A DNA stretch of 62,613 bases from Bacteroidota bacterium. Lineage in GTDB: Bacteria; Bacteroidota; Bacteroidia; Chitinophagales; BACL12. Below the pieces are notes generated by a model. It saw only the letters and a list, made by a program, of their open reading frames with translations, searched no databases and was not told the DNA's origin. Below, one piece after another: positions 1 to 34,882 of the stretch. The translations under genes and the position numbers were made by a program. Location: positions 1 to 62,613 of the forward strand of contig JANMLV010000284.1 in the NCBI GenBank assembly GCA_031372705.1, written 5' to 3'. Each line of letters starts with the position of its first letter. Positions within the stretch are counted from its first letter, which is position 1.

Positions 1-124
1 ATCTTTATACAAATAAACCATTTTTTTTAACACCAAAAACAAAACATAAACCTAAAAACTTCGCCAGCAAAATTGGTGGTCAATTTGCTTCGGCCTGATG
101 TGGTCAATTTGACCGGCGTGTGCA
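1..124. mobile_element. Terminal end of an IS21-family insertion sequence (element continues beyond the left edge of the window)
   Basis: GTGGTCAATTTG occurs twice with 24-bp spacing (76-87, 100-111), each copy followed by ..CGGC, and the segment ends in ...GACCGGCGTGTGCA (CA-3' terminus). This layout of subterminal repeats is typical of IS21 ends. No transposase is inside the window. Confidence 0.7.
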
Positions 125-396
125 CTCTCAGGATATAATAAGAGCAGCATGGAATAAGGGTATTTATACAAATAGCAACATCATCCTCCTGATCAGTTTC
201 GCCACGATATATGTGGTGAATTAATAGAATAAAGATTCTACGGAAATAGAGACTCAACAAACATTTGGGAAGTAGATCATATTAACCCAGTTGCAAATGG
301 TGGAACAGACGACTTAAGTAATTTACAGCCGTTATATTGGTTAAATAATGCTCGTAAGGTGATAAACTAAACTGGGTGTGTGATGAGGGTATTTAA
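125..396 (+). pseudogene. Small HNH endonuclease pseudogene, 5'-truncated by the IS end
   Basis: Manual translation over three frames gives SQDIIRAAWNKGIYTNSN / HPPDQFRHDICGELIE*RFYGNRDSTNIWEVDHINPVANGGTDDLSNLQPLYWLNNARK / GDKLNWVCDEGI*. HNH motif WEVDHI..GG.D.LSNLQPL..NN is present. Lesions: frameshift near 180, TAA at 230-232, frameshift near 358. Confidence 0.8.
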
Positions 397-466
397 AATC
401 TTCCCAATTCTCGAACACATATATAATTTTCTATAAGTGTGTCAGGTCTAATATAGTTTTGTTATT

Positions 467-703
467 TTAATCTTGACCTTTATCCTTTTCCTTCATTGTC
501 TTACTTTTCAAATGGCCAAGCTCGTTTAACCTGTCTTGTGATTGCTCTTGTTCAAATTCCTTTAGACCTAGCATTAATCCCTGAATGTATGAATTATCAG
601 ATTGTAAGCCCTTTATAACAGTTAACAGCATCACTGGTTCGTGTTTTGCCAAAATGTATCCACTGTTAAACCCCGTAATAAATTGTTTTTCCTCAAGTTT
701 CAT
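467..703 (-). CDS. Small hypothetical protein of the mobile-element edge
   Basis: 78-aa ORF whose start overlaps the stop of the HTH gene at 703 (translational coupling). Confidence 0.7.
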   Translation of the reverse strand: MKLEEKQFITGFNSGYILAKHEPVMLLTVIKGLQSDNSYIQGLMLGLKEFEQEQSQDRLNELGHLKSKTMKEKDKGQD

Positions 704-972
704 TAAAAAGTATTTTTTGCATGTTTATCTAAGTATTCATTTAGCGAGTCTTTGTCATAAAGAATAATCTTCTTTTCCGGCTGCGAATATCGAATTTGTC
801 CCTCATCCCGAAGTTTCTGAAGTGTGGTCTTACTTTTAATCCTCAGTTTTTCCATTACCTCTTCTCCGGAAATCCACTTATCCTCTTTAATGCCTTGTTC
901 CAATTTAATACGTTTAACCACCCTTTCAATAAGTGAATAAAATGCTTCATCTTCAATGCAAACGACATCCAT
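703..972 (-). CDS. Excisionase-like helix-turn-helix (HTH_17/MerR-type) protein
   Basis: 89 aa with WISGEEVMEKLRIKSKTTLQKLRDEGQIRYSQ..ILYDKDSLNEYL, typical of Bacteroidota mobile-element Xis-like proteins; lies next to the tRNA 3' end. Confidence 0.85.
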   Translation of the reverse strand: MDVVCIEDEAFYSLIERVVKRIKLEQGIKEDKWISGEEVMEKLRIKSKTTLQKLRDEGQIRYSQPEKKIILYDKDSLNEYLDKHAKNTF

Positions 973-1006
973 AAGTCAAATATAGATAATTTTTTAAACA
1001 TCGTAT

Positions 1007-1028
1007 TGTTGTACCTATGTTGTACCTA
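1007..1028. repeat. Perfect tandem 11-bp repeat TGTTGTACCTA x2, candidate integrase arm-type site
   Basis: Copies at 1007-1017 and 1018-1028, about 50 bp from the tRNA 3' end. The repeat is seen directly; the function is inferred. Confidence 0.5.
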
Positions 1029-1033
1029 AACCA

Positions 1034-1068
1034 TAAAGGCTTCGAAGAATATCTCTTCAAAGCCTTTA
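1034..1068 (-). terminator. Hairpin downstream of tRNA-Phe (probable terminator)
   Basis: Minus strand reads AAAGGCTTTGAAGA-gatat-TCTTCGAAGCCTTT, a 14-bp stem with one G-U pair. Confidence 0.6.
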
Positions 1069-1076
1069 CTTACTTG

Positions 1077-1149
1077 TGGTGTGGGGCGGGATCGAACCGC
1101 CGACACAAGGATTTTCAGTCCTTTGCTCTACCAACTGAGCTACCGCACC
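1077..1149 (-). tRNA. tRNA-Phe (GAA)
   Basis: Minus strand GGTGCGGTAGCTCAGTTGGTAGAGCAAAGGACTGAAAATCCTTGTGTCGGCGGTTCGATCCCGCCCCACACCA. D, anticodon (AAGGA/CTGAAAA/TCCTT) and T arms are intact; CCA is not encoded; C5-A68 mismatch in the acceptor stem. Confidence 0.95.
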
Positions 1150-1164
1150 ATTTTAATTCATTCA

Positions 1165-1270
1165 TTCGAACCGTCAACACAAGCCCGCCCGGTTGACCCG
1201 GTCGGACGGGGATTTTCAGTCCTTTGCTCTACCCCTGTCCGTCAACCGACGGAAACTGAGCTACCGCACC
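1165..1270 (-). pseudogene. Degenerate second tRNA-Phe copy with two palindromic insertions
   Basis: Matches the intact copy once inserts 1184-1210 (27 nt) and 1234-1253 (20 nt) are removed. The T stem is mutated and the 3' acceptor strand is missing. Confidence 0.85.
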
Positions 1271-1315
1271 ATTTTTTGGACGAATTTCACGCCCTTTCGG
1301 TTTTCTTTCGGAATG

Positions 1316-1323
1316 CAAAGGTA
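1316..1323 (-). promoter_or_regulatory. Bacteroidota -7 promoter element for the tRNA-Phe locus
   Basis: TACCTTTG (TAnnTTTG) on the minus strand, about 45 nt upstream of the degenerate tRNA copy. Confidence 0.65.
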
Positions 1324-1335
1324 ATATTTTGCTGT

Positions 1336-3639
1336 TTATTTTCCAATTCTAAAGTTATTTACCATGAAATTTTTGTCGGAAACCACGTCGTAGTAGGCAT
1401 GGAATGCCGTGTGACGGATTACCAATTCATCAAAATTAACCGGTGAATCGTCGCTGCAACGCACTTTTATGAGGCGAACGTCGGGGAGTAATTCCAGGTT
1501 TTCGGAAGCGCGAACCCAGCCGGACATTACATCGGTGCTCTGGGTTGGAGCTACGCTGCTTTCGCGGAGTAAGTTGCCGTTTGCGTCGTAATAGCCAAGG
1601 TTAATATAGGGATAAGCCATGCTGTTGATGTCGCTTTTTGCCCAGAATGATATTTCTATCCAAATGGTATCATGAGGCTCAATGGGTATTTCGGCCATAG
1701 GCAATACCTTTTTGTCGCTAAGGAAGGCACCGGAACCTAAAAATGCCTCTCCGCCGGGCGTATTTTCGAAACCATTGCGGTAAAATAGAGTTAAGGGCTG
1801 TTCTGCGCGATAAGGTGTTCCGGTTGGGGAAATGTAGTCGTGCAAGGTGTCTTTTACGGTTAGATAGTCGGCAATTGCTAAAACTTCGCCTTTTTGGGTA
1901 AGTGCGCTCGTTTCAAATGCGTATAATATGTATTCTTCGCGAGTGCTGAATTTTACGGAATGGTCTATAATAAATTGTTCGCCGGCAGTCATTGGCGAAG
2001 GCTTGGTCATAATTAATAATCGCTTCGCGTTAAATACGCCTCCTTCAGTTGGGTTGTTGATGTATGGATGTGAAACTAACTGCACATTATTTAACGTCTG
2101 ACTAAACGACGTGCGACTCGACATATAATTTACCAAGGGCAATCCGGTTTGGTAAGAAATTTCCATTGCTTGCGCAAAATTGCCGCGCGTGCGATCGATA
2201 TATATTTTTTCGGAGCCCTGAAAAAAGGAAGGTAAAAAAACAATTGCATCAAAATCGGCAGATGTATATGGCGTTCCTAAAAACATGTCGGAGAAATAGG
2301 TGTTTTTTCCATTGAACGGATTTTCTGCATTATTTGCTTGCATACGTTTTGCTGTTCCGGTAAACCAGATGAAACTTTCTATTGCCATTAACAGCACCAA
2401 TGAAATGGAAAATAAATAGGCGAGTTTATGATGACGCAATTTTATTTTTTTATGCAACATAAAAATTAAAACGGCAATTACCGACATGTATACATAATAA
2501 AATCCCCATGCAAATCGTCCGGGTGAACGAAATTGTTTTAAGGGTGTGATAATGTCCAACAAAAATTGTAATCCTAAATTAAAAGGAAAGGTCATCGAAA
2601 ATAATAATAGTAAAACTGCCGAGAATAAAAATTTCCCCATATCGCCCGGCAAAGGAATGCTTGCGCGTATTATCGATTTTTTGAACCGCAAACGCTTGAT
2701 GTAAATAAATAATAATATGAATAAAAAAATTAATCCCGTATATCCAACATAAGCATATCCCTCCGGATTAGATTGTCCAAAGTGGAATATTTTTCTTGCC
2801 TGATTAGTGAGTGTTCCGTTGTTAGGTAAAAATACCGATTGAAACGATGCCTTATATCTAAAAAAACCATATGGACTTTCGGGCCTGTCGCTCACACTAT
2901 CCGTAAAATGCATAAAGGCCATAATGCTGAATAATGGCAAGGCAGCAACAGCAAATAATTTGAATACGGAGATGTAATTTCTTTTATTGCTCACCCACAA
3001 AACAATGCCGTGAAATCCTATAAATAAAGCAGCAATTAAAACATAATACATGTGTATGAGTCCGAAAAAAATAATGGTAATCGTTGCGATAAGCATTGGC
3101 AGCCATGCATAATGTTTCTTTTTAATAACAATTAATTGCCACCAAATTAGCGGAACAAATAGGGCGTATCCCAACGCAAAATGTCCCCAAAATCTATCAA
3201 GTTGCGGACTCATCAACCCAATTACAATCGCCATGATGGCTGCATACCAAGCGGGTAATTGATAATGCCTTAATATTTTAAATAGTATTATTATCCCGCC
3301 CCATAACGATAACAGCAACAGCATATTTAATATGCCAATCGTATAATTGTGAATGGGGATGATATTATTATCAATAGCATTTAACATCCACGAAATCATT
3401 GGCTGATTATCGGTAAACACCACATGTTCGCCGTAGGGATAGTTCATGCCTGTAAAATGTGTGCCCGTGTCGTTGGCTACATACCAGGCGGGAGTGTAAT
3501 AGTTTTTAAATGCATCGCCGCCATTATTTAATAAATATTGATTGGGATGAAAAGCAATTTTGCTGAATACGCCCAAAATAATAACCAGACTTATTATTGC
3601 GAGCAGATAAATTGGTTTTATGCGCGTATTGTTTTTCAT
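1336..3639 (-). CDS. Multi-pass membrane protein, probable GT-C-fold (YfhO-like) glycosyltransferase with a C-terminal soluble domain
   Basis: 767 aa; about 10-12 hydrophobic segments in the N-terminal 430 aa, GGDAFKNYY / YPYGE / QFRSPGRF motifs; directly downstream of two GT2 genes. Confidence 0.6.
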   Translation of the reverse strand: MKNNTRIKPIYLLAIISLVIILGVFSKIAFHPNQYLLNNGGDAFKNYYTPAWYVANDTGTHFTGMNYPYGEHVVFTDNQPMISWMLNAIDNNIIPIHNYTIGILNMLLLLSLWGGIIILFKILRHYQLPAWYAAIMAIVIGLMSPQLDRFWGHFALGYALFVPLIWWQLIVIKKKHYAWLPMLIATITIIFFGLIHMYYVLIAALFIGFHGIVLWVSNKRNYISVFKLFAVAALPLFSIMAFMHFTDSVSDRPESPYGFFRYKASFQSVFLPNNGTLTNQARKIFHFGQSNPEGYAYVGYTGLIFLFILLFIYIKRLRFKKSIIRASIPLPGDMGKFLFSAVLLLLFSMTFPFNLGLQFLLDIITPLKQFRSPGRFAWGFYYVYMSVIAVLIFMLHKKIKLRHHKLAYLFSISLVLLMAIESFIWFTGTAKRMQANNAENPFNGKNTYFSDMFLGTPYTSADFDAIVFLPSFFQGSEKIYIDRTRGNFAQAMEISYQTGLPLVNYMSSRTSFSQTLNNVQLVSHPYINNPTEGGVFNAKRLLIMTKPSPMTAGEQFIIDHSVKFSTREEYILYAFETSALTQKGEVLAIADYLTVKDTLHDYISPTGTPYRAEQPLTLFYRNGFENTPGGEAFLGSGAFLSDKKVLPMAEIPIEPHDTIWIEISFWAKSDINSMAYPYINLGYYDANGNLLRESSVAPTQSTDVMSGWVRASENLELLPDVRLIKVRCSDDSPVNFDELVIRHTAFHAYYDVVSDKNFMVNNFRIGK

Positions 3640-32689: not shown

Positions 32690-34882
32690 TTATCTAATTA
32701 ATGTTACGTTTCCTTTAAGCTGAACAATTCTGCCGGTAATTAATTGCACTTGTGCTGTGTAGGCATATACACCTTGGTTTACAGGTTCGTTTTTATAAGT
32801 TCCATTCCATGTTGAATTAATGTCGGTAGGTGCTGTGTCATTTACAATAAAAATGCGTTCACCCCATCTGTCAAAAATCATTAATGATTTAATTAATGCT
32901 ATTCCCGGACCTAATATTGTAAAGCCATCATTTATGCCATCGCCATTTGGCGTAAAAGTATTTGGAACAAAAATATTTTCATTAGAAATCATTACTGTTA
33001 AAGTAACGCTATCCGCAGCAAAACCATTAGCATCTATTGAAAATAATGTATAGGTTATAGTTGTATCAGTATCTGAAAATGTTGTAGAGCAATCAATACA
33101 AGTTAATCCGAATGGCGGCGACCATGTATAACTGCCACCAGTGCTGCCATTAAGCTCAGCAACGCCGGAATCGAAAATTGTTGTATCGCTGCCTGCGTTT
33201 GCAAAGTTTTGTGAAACGGTTATTGAAGAGGACTCCGTTATAACACAACCATTTACATCAATTATGCTATAATTAATAATATACGGTCCACCAACTCCAA
33301 CAGCTATAGGATCGAATGTTGTTCCGGTTACACCACTTCCTGAAAACACACCTCCTATAGGCGACGCAGATAATACTATTGGCGCAGATTCAAAGCAAAT
33401 ATTTGTTGGTATATCAAATGTAATATCCGTTATAGGGAAATTATTTAGTATGAAACTAATTACACTATCACAACCTGCAATTGTTGTTAAATTGTAATTA
33501 TAAATGCCGGGTGTCGATGATGTACTTCCATCGGGTAACAAAACAATTTCGTTTGTGCAAACGGTAGTATCAATTATGGTTAAATAGGTTGGATTCAATA
33601 ATAAATTAGTGGTTATAATACTATCGCAACCTGCAACTGTAGTGAACGTAGATATGTATACGCCTGCAGTTGTTACAATACTGCCATCCGGTAAAGTGTA
33701 ATTATCGCCATCGCAAATTGCAGCATTTATTGTTGTTGAATAAGTGGTTGCAATACCAAGGTTCACAGTAATAATGCTATCGCATCCTGCTATTGTAATT
33801 AAATTAAAAACATAAGTACCTGCAATTGTTGTTGAACTGCCATCCGGTAAAATATATGTTAACCCATCGCAAATAGCATCATTAATTATTATATTGTAAA
33901 TGGGTAACAAGGTTAAATTGGTAATTACAACACTATCATCTCCGCCAACCCCAATTAAGGTTACTTCATATTCTCCCGCAGCGGTTACAATTGTTCCATC
34001 GGGCAGTGTGTAGGAGTCGCCGGTGCAAATAGCAGTGTCTATTGTTGCAGCGCATGGTTCAATAACAATTGTGTCGGTTAATAAATAGGAGCCCGGGTCG
34101 TAATGACAATAATCGGCAACCGTAAATGAATAAATTCCCGGTGCATCAATTGTAACAGTATATCCAACATCGCCGGTACTCCATTCAGGATCGCCCCAAA
34201 CTACTCCATAAAAGGAAATATCTAAGATTATTTCAGCATCACATAATAATGTTGTGTCCGGTAAAAAATTGTATTCAGCACCGCCAACATAAATCGGATT
34301 TGGGTCAGTAACAGGGTCTTCAAAGCAGCAGTTCCCTCCATCACTAACCTGAAAAGTGCCACCGGGGAAACCACTATAATCTGTCCAATGCGCATAAAAA
34401 TTTGAACCGGGGCCAAACTCAGCAATAAAAAATTGAACAATTTGAGGCGATGAATTGCCGCCTCCCAATGCTGTTTCGCCGCAACCCTCGGCTCCTGCCA
34501 TGCAATTTACAATTGGAGGTAAACCCGGAAAAAGTTCATCGCCTAAGTAATTAGTTATGGCAATATTATCGGTAGTAGTTGAGTAAACCGTAACTATGGC
34601 AGGGTCCACGCCACTGATGTCTGACGGGGCTTCAAAGCCTGCAAATATCACTTCAGTAATGTTTCCCGCGAAAATACCCGTAATATTTACATCTACAATT
34701 TCGTAAGTGCAAATGCCAATTTTAAGGTTCGGAATATCAACATCTACATCAATATTTAAAGTGCCACCTTCATAATTGGAGTAAATCATCACATTGCCTG
34801 TCGCATCGCAAATGGTTTGTGTTCGCACCTGTAAGGGGTTCATTATTAAAAGCGTCAGAATTGCGACTGTTAAAGCTCTCAT
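32690..34882 (-). CDS. T9SS type B (gliding-motility C-terminal domain) secreted protein with four LPDG..GCDS repeats
   Basis: Signal peptide; C-terminal VPNTFTPNGDGIND..IFDRWG..GVYAY..GNVTLIR. Confidence 0.88.
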   Translation of the reverse strand: MRALTVAILTLLIMNPLQVRTQTICDATGNVMIYSNYEGGTLNIDVDVDIPNLKIGICTYEIVDVNITGIFAGNITEVIFAGFEAPSDISGVDPAIVTVYSTTTDNIAITNYLGDELFPGLPPIVNCMAGAEGCGETALGGGNSSPQIVQFFIAEFGPGSNFYAHWTDYSGFPGGTFQVSDGGNCCFEDPVTDPNPIYVGGAEYNFLPDTTLLCDAEIILDISFYGVVWGDPEWSTGDVGYTVTIDAPGIYSFTVADYCHYDPGSYLLTDTIVIEPCAATIDTAICTGDSYTLPDGTIVTAAGEYEVTLIGVGGDDSVVITNLTLLPIYNIIINDAICDGLTYILPDGSSTTIAGTYVFNLITIAGCDSIITVNLGIATTYSTTINAAICDGDNYTLPDGSIVTTAGVYISTFTTVAGCDSIITTNLLLNPTYLTIIDTTVCTNEIVLLPDGSTSSTPGIYNYNLTTIAGCDSVISFILNNFPITDITFDIPTNICFESAPIVLSASPIGGVFSGSGVTGTTFDPIAVGVGGPYIINYSIIDVNGCVITESSSITVSQNFANAGSDTTIFDSGVAELNGSTGGSYTWSPPFGLTCIDCSTTFSDTDTTITYTLFSIDANGFAADSVTLTVMISNENIFVPNTFTPNGDGINDGFTILGPGIALIKSLMIFDRWGERIFIVNDTAPTDINSTWNGTYKNEPVNQGVYAYTAQVQLITGRIVQLKGNVTLIR

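Follow-up and report, generated by a model that had tools for sequence, protein, structure and literature searches.

Hairpin-patched partial tRNA copies in a Chitinophagales genome: a truncated tRNA-Phe copy as a possible member of a tRNA-linked GIY-YIG and palindrome cassette family

The tRNA-Phe locus and its truncated copy

The DNA described here, called the window below, is the 62,613-nucleotide contig C122 of a Chitinophagales metagenome-assembled genome (MAG; G000, 4.09 Mb in 318 contigs, 36.5% GC). The subject of this work is a truncated copy of tRNA-Phe, interrupted by two short hairpins, which lies directly upstream of the intact gene. The sole tRNA that ARAGORN reports in the window is tRNA-Phe(GAA) at 1149..1076 on the minus strand, which matches the Rfam family RF00005 at 68.7 bits. 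It is also the only tRNA-Phe gene in the assembly, since a 'tRNA-Phe(aaa)' called by ARAGORN on contig C281 is a false positive. The locus was compared in 13 species of the genus (G000, G002, G003, G004, G007 and G009-G016). The acceptor stem of the tRNA (GGTGCGG / CCACACC) has a C5:A68 mismatch. In 13 of the 13 genus genomes inspected the tRNA is identical or differs by at most one substitution, and the strands of the acceptor stem are the same in all 13; a sequencing error can therefore be discounted and the mismatch taken as real.

The truncated copy was delimited by comparison with the intact tRNA and occupies 1165..1270 on the minus strand. Read in the sense of the tRNA (1270..1165) it is GGTGCGGTAGCTCAGTT[TCCGTCGGTTGACGGACAGG]GGTAGAGCAAAGGACTGAAAATCC[CCGTCCGACCGGGTCAACCGGGCGGG]CTTGTGTTGACGGTTCGAA, with the inserts in the inner brackets. 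Without the inserts the copy is 59 nt long and corresponds to tRNA positions 1-59; the first 47 nucleotides are identical to the tRNA and 56 of the 59 match overall, the mismatches being at positions 48, 50 and 59. An earlier note on this DNA had claimed that removal of the inserts restores the 5' part and the anticodon arm of tRNA-Phe, and the 47 consecutive identical bases agree with this. The same note described the T stem and the 3' acceptor strand as decayed. The 3' acceptor strand is absent, but the copy is truncated rather than decayed, it keeps the 5' strand of the T stem and the TTCGA of the T-loop and then stops. Between the copy and the 5' end of the tRNA is an AT-rich spacer (1150..1164, minus strand). 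The equivalent copies of G002, G009 and G014 end in tails homologous to that of this copy, and the spacer is in turn homologous to the tails of the copies called type C below in the same three genomes.

Neither Rfam nor ARAGORN makes a call on the copy. An Rfam scan of positions 1-3000, even at E<=1, reports the intact tRNA alone, so assignment of the copy to a known RNA family was rejected. A tRNA intron or a split tRNA, of the group I or archaeal bulge-helix-bulge kind, was also rejected because the copy ends at position 59 and the 3' strands of both the T stem and the acceptor stem are missing.

The two inserts are GC-rich hairpins. Insert 2 is 20 nt long (1234..1253) and is found in the D-loop between tRNA positions 17 and 18; in the sense of the tRNA it reads TCCGTC-GGTT-GACGGA followed by CAGG. 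Insert 1 is a 27-nt hairpin of the family that we call F1 (1184..1210), which reads CCCGTCCG-ACCGGGTCAAC-CGGGCGGG and lies between positions 41 and 42, in the 3' strand of the anticodon stem. Its boundary is ambiguous by one C (1183-1209 or 1184-1210). The GC contents of inserts 1 and 2 are 81% and 65%, against 36.5% genome-wide, and both insertions are clean, without target duplication. The minimum-free-energy fold of the leader has a separate hairpin for each insert, as the earlier note had suggested. When insert 2 is aligned with the reverse complement of insert 1 the alignment beats 2000 of 2000 shuffles; the inserts are therefore related and lie in opposite orientations, which upholds the view that they form one family.

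A Bacteroidota-type -7 promoter box (TAnnTTTG) is present at 1316..1323 on the minus strand, where it reads TACCTTTG. It is separated from the copy by a 5' leader segment (1271..1315, minus strand), placed by locus comparison and folding. The number of TAnnTTTG motifs is by itself not above chance; relatives carry such a box at the equivalent place upstream of tRNA-Phe or of its pseudo-copies. We infer that the box works as the promoter assigned to this position in the earlier note. There is no terminator-like site between the box and tRNA-Phe, so the copy and the tRNA would naturally be co-transcribed, with a leader of ~160 nt. A sigma-70-like match (TTGACG-16 nt-TAAAAT) occurs inside the tail of the copy at 1177..1150 on the minus strand. 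A Bacteroidota cell would probably not use it as a promoter, and it was judged irrelevant here because its -10 element ends 1 nt before the start of the tRNA.

Patched tRNA copies and hairpin families in the genome

All 32 tRNA genes were compared with the genome by BLAST, and partial copies were counted within 1.5 kb of a tRNA. Adjacent partial copies were found for eight tRNA genes: Val, Glu, Arg(CCG), Arg(CCU), Phe, Pro, Arg(ACG) and Leu(CAG). Nearly all of these copies carry hairpins that belong to a few families and that either sit in the D- or T-loop or replace the anticodon arm. Two hairpins in one fragment are common (Phe, Pro and Arg(CCU)). The uninterrupted identity of a fragment to its parent tRNA is never above ~34 nt. 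Around 18 of the 21 hairpins of families F1 to F4 are inside tRNA fragments, which by a rough estimate make up ~0.04% of the genome. These patched copies were missed by the earlier note.

F1 is a 27-nt hairpin with the form CCCGYCCG-N11-CGGRCGGG. The genome contains four copies, all of them in tRNA fragments. Three are at position 17/18, in the D-loop, of broken tRNA-Arg copies (C64:357-383, 807-833 and 1139-1165), and the fourth is insert 1 of the Phe copy. Both inserts of the Phe copy also recur in G002. The expectation that the inserts belong to a set of recurring palindromes is supported, both in this genome and in its relatives.

F2 is an identical 27-nt palindrome, CCTGCCCGACTTGCGTCAGCAGGCGGG, that splits the T-loop of the Pro and Arg(CCG) copies between C56 and G57. 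One 73-nt tandem array is common to the contig ends C64:1-195 and C123:1-165; its units are 3' halves of tRNA-Arg(CCG) (positions 28-73), and each has the F2 palindrome in its T-loop. The assembly probably breaks inside one longer Arg(CCG) array at these two ends.

F3 has the form TCCCGC-N5-7-GCGGGA and replaces the whole anticodon arm in two Val copies, the Pro copy and one Arg(ACG) copy. F4 comprises CCTGCCTACC...GGTAGG elements of 24 or ~95 nt, which follow G53 in the Arg(ACG) and Leu(CAG) copies. As a separate observation, an F3-type TCCCGC..GCGGGA forms the apical stem-loop of two copies of the Flavo-1 RNA (RF01705), at C109:8060-8138 on the plus strand and at C72 ~32690-32790 on the minus strand. 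A locus of G003 (L088) that is Flavo-1-like by eye bears TCCGTCAGCTGACGGA in this place.

Two candidate family members were rejected. The hairpin TCCGTCCTTGTTGACGGA on C117 is the terminator of tRNA-His. The earlier note had also raised in-frame insertions in coding sequences. The sole near-match, C188:927-946, has two mismatches and was taken as chance; the open reading frame (ORF) there was read by eye as a GyrA-type motif.

Small GIY-YIG genes among the broken tRNA copies

The genome has three small free-standing GIY-YIG genes, on C16, C27 and C64, which encode proteins of 78-85 aa. These proteins match Pfam PF01541 alone, the domain spans residues 1-70 of an 80-aa protein, and no separate DNA-binding domain was found in them. 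The closest solved structures are the UPF0213 proteins 1YWL and 1ZG2.

All three genes are embedded among broken tRNA copies and are within ~500 nt of a tRNA or tmRNA. The gene on C16 stands behind the Val copies. On C27 the gene is directly followed by tRNA-Glu positions 29-55, and on C64 it is located between two hairpin-patched 5' copies of tRNA-Arg(CCG). The earlier note did not report any of these genes.

The association extends to other genomes. In eight relatives 10 of 17 homologous nuclease genes are within ~500 nt of a tRNA or transfer-messenger RNA (tmRNA) gene, for which the chance expectation is ~1%. Partial copies of the adjacent tRNA accompany eight of these ten genes, and CCTGCC..GGCAGG palindromes are present at five of these loci. 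Three tRNA-Met copies at locus L059 have TCCGCCGAAAAGGCGGA in place of the entire D arm.

Locus L051 of G023, from another genus, is the clearest example of the complete layout. A promoter is followed by tRNA-Arg(ACG) positions 1-35, whose D-loop contains a perfect palindrome of 20 nt, then by the nuclease ORF, and the intact tRNA starts directly after the stop codon. Three tandem units come next, each consisting of a near-full tRNA copy, a D-loop hairpin and a terminator of its own. Several relatives carry a Phe copy that we call type B, in which positions 1-17, a hairpin and positions 18-38 precede the intact tRNA. This is the layout of L051 minus the ORF. Within G000, families F1, F2 and F3 occur at loci that lack the nuclease gene (Phe, Pro and Arg(ACG)) and also at loci that bear it.

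A proposed family of tRNA-linked cassettes

We propose that the Phe copy is a member, without a nuclease gene of its own, of a family of tRNA-linked cassettes that combine GIY-YIG genes and palindromes, and that it is co-transcribed as the leader of the tRNA. We give this reading a probability of about 0.5. Each cassette would be built from partial copies of the tRNA beside it, with short GC-rich palindromes as patches, and the autonomous versions would also carry the gene for a minimal ~80-aa, UPF0213/Slx1-like GIY-YIG nuclease. This nuclease is the best candidate for the enzyme that moves the hairpins, by association only.

Such a nuclease might break tRNA genes at loops or helix junctions. 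Repair that copies from a cassette-bearing or ectopic template would then leave a tandem partial duplicate beside a regenerated intact tRNA. The palindrome would mark the junction and interrupt the repeat, so that tRNA-identical runs stay at or below ~34 nt. The Phe element may have lost its nuclease gene, may have been moved in trans, or may have moved by recombination anchored on the invariant tRNA and promoter, and it would then have spread, or been kept, within the genus. The predicted transcript would start from the TAnnTTTG promoter as a ~160-nt leader that RNase P removes from the tRNA.

Several points weigh against this proposal. The Phe locus lacks a GIY-YIG ORF both in the window and in the 12 relatives, and its link to the nuclease therefore rests on analogy and on the shared hairpins. 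The putative nucleases of ~80 aa are without a DNA-binding domain. The intact tRNA, which is the presumed target, persists beside the cassettes, and a simple homing model does not explain how it escapes cutting. More than 20 near-identical copies of F1 are found in G002 in modular repeats outside tRNA genes, far from any GIY-YIG gene, which means that the hairpins can spread without tRNA fragments.

Dispersed hairpins and the Y1 transposases

The dispersal of F1 supports another explanation, which is essentially that of the earlier note. The inserts would be autonomous palindromes, similar to repetitive extragenic palindromic (REP) sequences or miniature inverted-repeat transposable elements (MITEs), and would be moved by an enzyme of the REP-associated tyrosine transposase (RAYT) type or by another enzyme. 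They would prefer the single-stranded loops of tRNAs or short motifs and survive only in dispensable duplicates, the tRNA duplications and the GIY-YIG genes being unrelated neighbours that share tRNA loci. In addition to the copies in G002, F1 is present in ~10 copies in non-tRNA contexts in G007, and in both genomes it is embedded in modular intergenic repeats of the form '...CTCATTACT[F1]CATAACTCATTACT...'. In a pseudo-tRNA beside tRNA-Cys of G002 the insert-2 hairpin stands in place of the anticodon arm, and it is also a module of (CAGAACT)n intergenic repeats in that genome.

Two properties of the insertions fit this explanation. The elements of the IS200/IS605 and REP kinds likewise give no target duplication, and by inspection the three F1 target sites in G000 have G^GAT in common. 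Y1 transposase genes, of the RAYT or IS200-like type, are present in six of the six genus genomes tested. The Y1 genes are flanked by different REPs of their own, for example GTCGCCCCTACAGGGCT, CCCCCGGCTTCAGCCGGGGG and GGAGGGACTGAAGTCCCTCC. In a regular-expression scan there was no F1 in any Y1 locus and no Y1 gene was flanked by F1-F4, and in G002 no F1 copy lies within 20 kb of any Y1 gene. RAYT or IS200 enzymes were accordingly rejected as the mover of F1, and the connection to them that the earlier note had drawn falls away. Two RAYT-like Y1 genes with their own REP arrays (e.g. CCCTGTAGGGGCGACAG and GTGCCTACAGCAC) are located at C174:4944-5285 on the minus strand and at C241:5180-5524 on the plus strand of G000; these arrays are unrelated to the hairpins of the tRNA fragments.

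Three further findings stand against autonomous palindromes. The hairpins in G000 are nearly confined to tRNA fragments rather than dispersed. Whole anticodon or D arms have been swapped for hairpins of equal size, which simple insertion does not explain. The many partial tandem tRNA copies, and the GIY-YIG genes among them, would also be left unexplained. We regard this explanation as possible, but somewhat unlikely.

Across these contexts the hairpins behave as small portable modules, which occupy modular repeats and, within structured genes, the tips of loops and the junctions between helices. A more speculative reading, which we consider doubtful, is that the GC-rich palindromes and the minimal GIY-YIG nucleases constitute a two-part mobile system of an undescribed kind. 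The Slx1-like nuclease, structure-specific and without a DNA-binding domain, would act on extruded hairpins or cloverleaf DNA. Palindromic modules would be placed or exchanged by it where loops end and helices join, in the D, anticodon and T arms of tRNAs and in the apical loop of Flavo-1. The Phe leader and other cassettes that lack the nuclease gene would depend on movement in trans. A bolder version of this idea would make the transcribed leader the targeting RNA of the nuclease, the tRNA-identical segments of 17 nt and 24 nt each being followed by a hairpin.

The Phe locus across the genus

A 767-aa gene upstream of tRNA-Phe, together with the promoter, is syntenic across the genus. The Phe fragment is present in eight of the 13 species, in at least three forms and in one to three copies. 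G002, which is a 3-contig assembly, has three broken copies ahead of the intact tRNA. Its copies A and B have a hairpin in the D-loop and end after the anticodon loop, and copy C has F1 alone at 41/42 and a stub of the T arm. The genomes G003, G007 and G013 have one type-B copy each. The hairpin of insert 2 occurs at the same D-loop site in G002, G003 and G007 and, in diverged form, in G013. In G009 and G014 a type-C copy has a diverged hairpin at 41/42 and a further hairpin that replaces the 5' strand of the anticodon stem. The third form is found twice in G016 (L010), where GGTGCGG is followed by the hairpin TCCTGACGCTAACGGTCAGGA at 7/8. One of the two G016 fragments also has a second hairpin and a remnant of the D arm.

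No Phe fragment was found in G004, G010, G011, G012 and G015. A search of 401 genomes of the order gave no D-loop-interrupted Phe copy in the 384 genomes outside the genus. Among the GTDB species genomes there are two records of such a copy, which are the genus genomes G007 and G013. Such uneven occurrence, with a varying number of copies and three forms, argues for selfish or hitch-hiking spread over a conserved host function.

The copy in the window combines features of types B and C. It may have arisen by the merging of two ancestral copies, which are still separate in G002. The crossover that this requires shares just 5 nt, since the B copies have GCGC where the window has GAGC. Alternatively a hairpin may have been inserted precisely into a type-C copy. 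The suggestion in the earlier note that one spare copy was hit twice is uncertain: in G002 the two hairpins are in separate tandem copies.

Parts of the copy are strongly conserved. Nine of ten Phe copies have an unchanged stretch at tRNA positions 1-17, and positions 24-38 hardly vary between copies. The 16-nt D-loop hairpin has one and the same sequence in G000, G002 copy B and G007, and the non-tRNA tails are ~50% diverged. The last 243 nt of the upstream gene are 63-77% identical among G000, G003, G007, G009 and G014. Two of the six pairs of the hairpin stem have changed on both sides (in G002 copy A and G013), and 97% of cells are paired; this compensatory signal is modest, it is equalled by 13 of 500 shuffles. 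The hairpin has no donor in a real tRNA and the B copies share the derived change GAGC>GCGC, the middle of the copy is therefore not being overwritten from the tRNA. From these comparisons the conservation of the Phe copy reflects constraint or recent spread between species, and not neutral decay.

This conservation could also suggest that the copy is a structured leader RNA of tRNA-Phe that is selected by the host. It might control processing or stability, or it might titrate, as a decoy or sponge, a factor whose target is the 5' half or the anticodon loop of tRNA-Phe; the earlier note had raised a decoy or a structured leader as possibilities. The near-invariance of the tRNA-derived segments beside the more divergent gene and tail, the paired changes in the hairpin stem, and the shared GAGC>GCGC, which speaks against constant gene conversion from the tRNA, are consistent with such a role. 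The copy is also necessarily inside the transcript between the only plausible promoter and the tRNA. Its absence from five of the 13 genus species and from the 384 genomes outside the genus, and its structurally different forms and varying number, are difficult to reconcile with a host function. The fold of the whole leader is no more stable than that of shuffled sequence (z = -0.74). Fragments of the same type also occur beyond a terminator on the downstream side of other tRNAs and cannot be leaders there. We consider selection as a leader RNA improbable.

An assembly artefact, suggested by the position of the locus 1.1 kb from the contig end in a 318-contig MAG and mentioned in the earlier note, or a neutral decaying duplicate with chance hairpins, is very improbable, because the same architecture is present in independent assemblies of at least five species, including the 3-contig genome, the hairpin families are common to several loci, and the conservation is far above the neutral expectation.

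Comparison with known systems

The closest known system to the proposed cassettes is SegB. This free-standing homing endonuclease of the GIY-YIG type is encoded among the clustered tRNA genes of phages T4 and T6 (PMC2330249; PMC13096335). It cuts the DNA of tRNA genes and thereby brings about the co-conversion of tRNA regions and their segmental (tandem) amplification (PMC2330249; PMC13096335). In both systems GIY-YIG genes are statistically associated with tRNA genes, and amplification of the SegB type would leave partial tandem copies of tRNAs. SegB differs in that it is a phage protein with a DNA-binding part, whereas the proteins here are chromosomally encoded, consist of 78-85 aa and have the catalytic domain only. 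Palindromes and arm replacements are not described at SegB loci, and the Phe locus has no nuclease gene.

The hairpins resemble REP sequences and REPINs with their RAYT (Y1) enzymes, and the palindrome-associated elements derived from IS200/IS605. Likenesses are the short, imperfect GC-rich palindromes with a conserved mismatch, their presence in many copies in relatives, the insertion without target duplication and the strand-specific orientation. Unlike REPs, the hairpins here have no cognate RAYT arrangement, they are found almost only inside tRNA fragments, and they replace whole tRNA arms.

The distal repeats of the E. coli tyrT operon (rtT RNA or tpr) are partial copies of the 3' end of tRNA-Tyr within a tRNA operon. 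Like the Phe copy they are tandem partial tRNA copies in a tRNA transcription unit, co-transcribed and freed by processing. In contrast to it they are downstream of the tRNA, and they have no hairpin patches, no association with a nuclease and no family at multiple loci.

A duplication of an integrase attachment (att) site would resemble the locus in having a partial direct repeat beside an intact tRNA, and an ORF with an excisionase-type helix-turn-helix domain lies 3' of this tRNA. Integrases duplicate the 3' end of a tRNA, and the repeat is at the far side of a large element. This origin was rejected: here the 5' 59 nt are repeated directly upstream, nothing is inserted before the tRNA, and the upstream gene is syntenic across species. 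In literature searches neither hairpin-patched pseudo-tRNAs nor tRNA-linked minimal GIY-YIG cassettes were found described for bacteria.

If the proposed cassettes are real, the essential single-copy tRNA genes of many bacteria would be host to a small selfish system that remodels their surroundings. It would create tandem partial copies and long structured leaders, and it would shuffle short palindromic modules through the genome. Homing-endonuclease biology would reach beyond phages and introns into bacterial chromosomes, and the nuclease would have just ~80 residues. Many annotated 'tRNA pseudogene' and fragment calls would be explained, and the modular GC-rich hairpin repeats of Bacteroidota would have a testable origin. 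The series of Phe leaders in the genus, in which the copy is absent or present in one to three copies and three forms, would serve as a natural experiment for dating and testing such events.

Additional observations

Modular intergenic repeats are also present in G000. They consist of AAAGGAAC, a CCTGCC..GGCAGG hairpin and GCAC, followed by (AACGGATT)n-like runs, and are located at C222:16830-16870, C30:3740-3770, C48:790-820, C297:4480-4505, C71:4730-4755 and C72:27430-27450. Their CCTGCC..GGCAGG hairpin is ~20/27 identical to the T-loop insert of the pseudo-tRNAs.

The ORF directly 3' of tRNA-Phe encodes 89 aa with an excisionase-type HTH_17 domain (703-972, minus strand). Direct repeats, GGTACAACATAGGTACAACA, are found at ~1010-1030, between tRNA-Phe and this ORF. 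The ORF and the repeats are probably the edge of an integrative element at the 3' end of the tRNA, which runs off the start of the contig. In G012, G015 and G024 tRNA-Phe is followed by similar GGTACAAC repeats.

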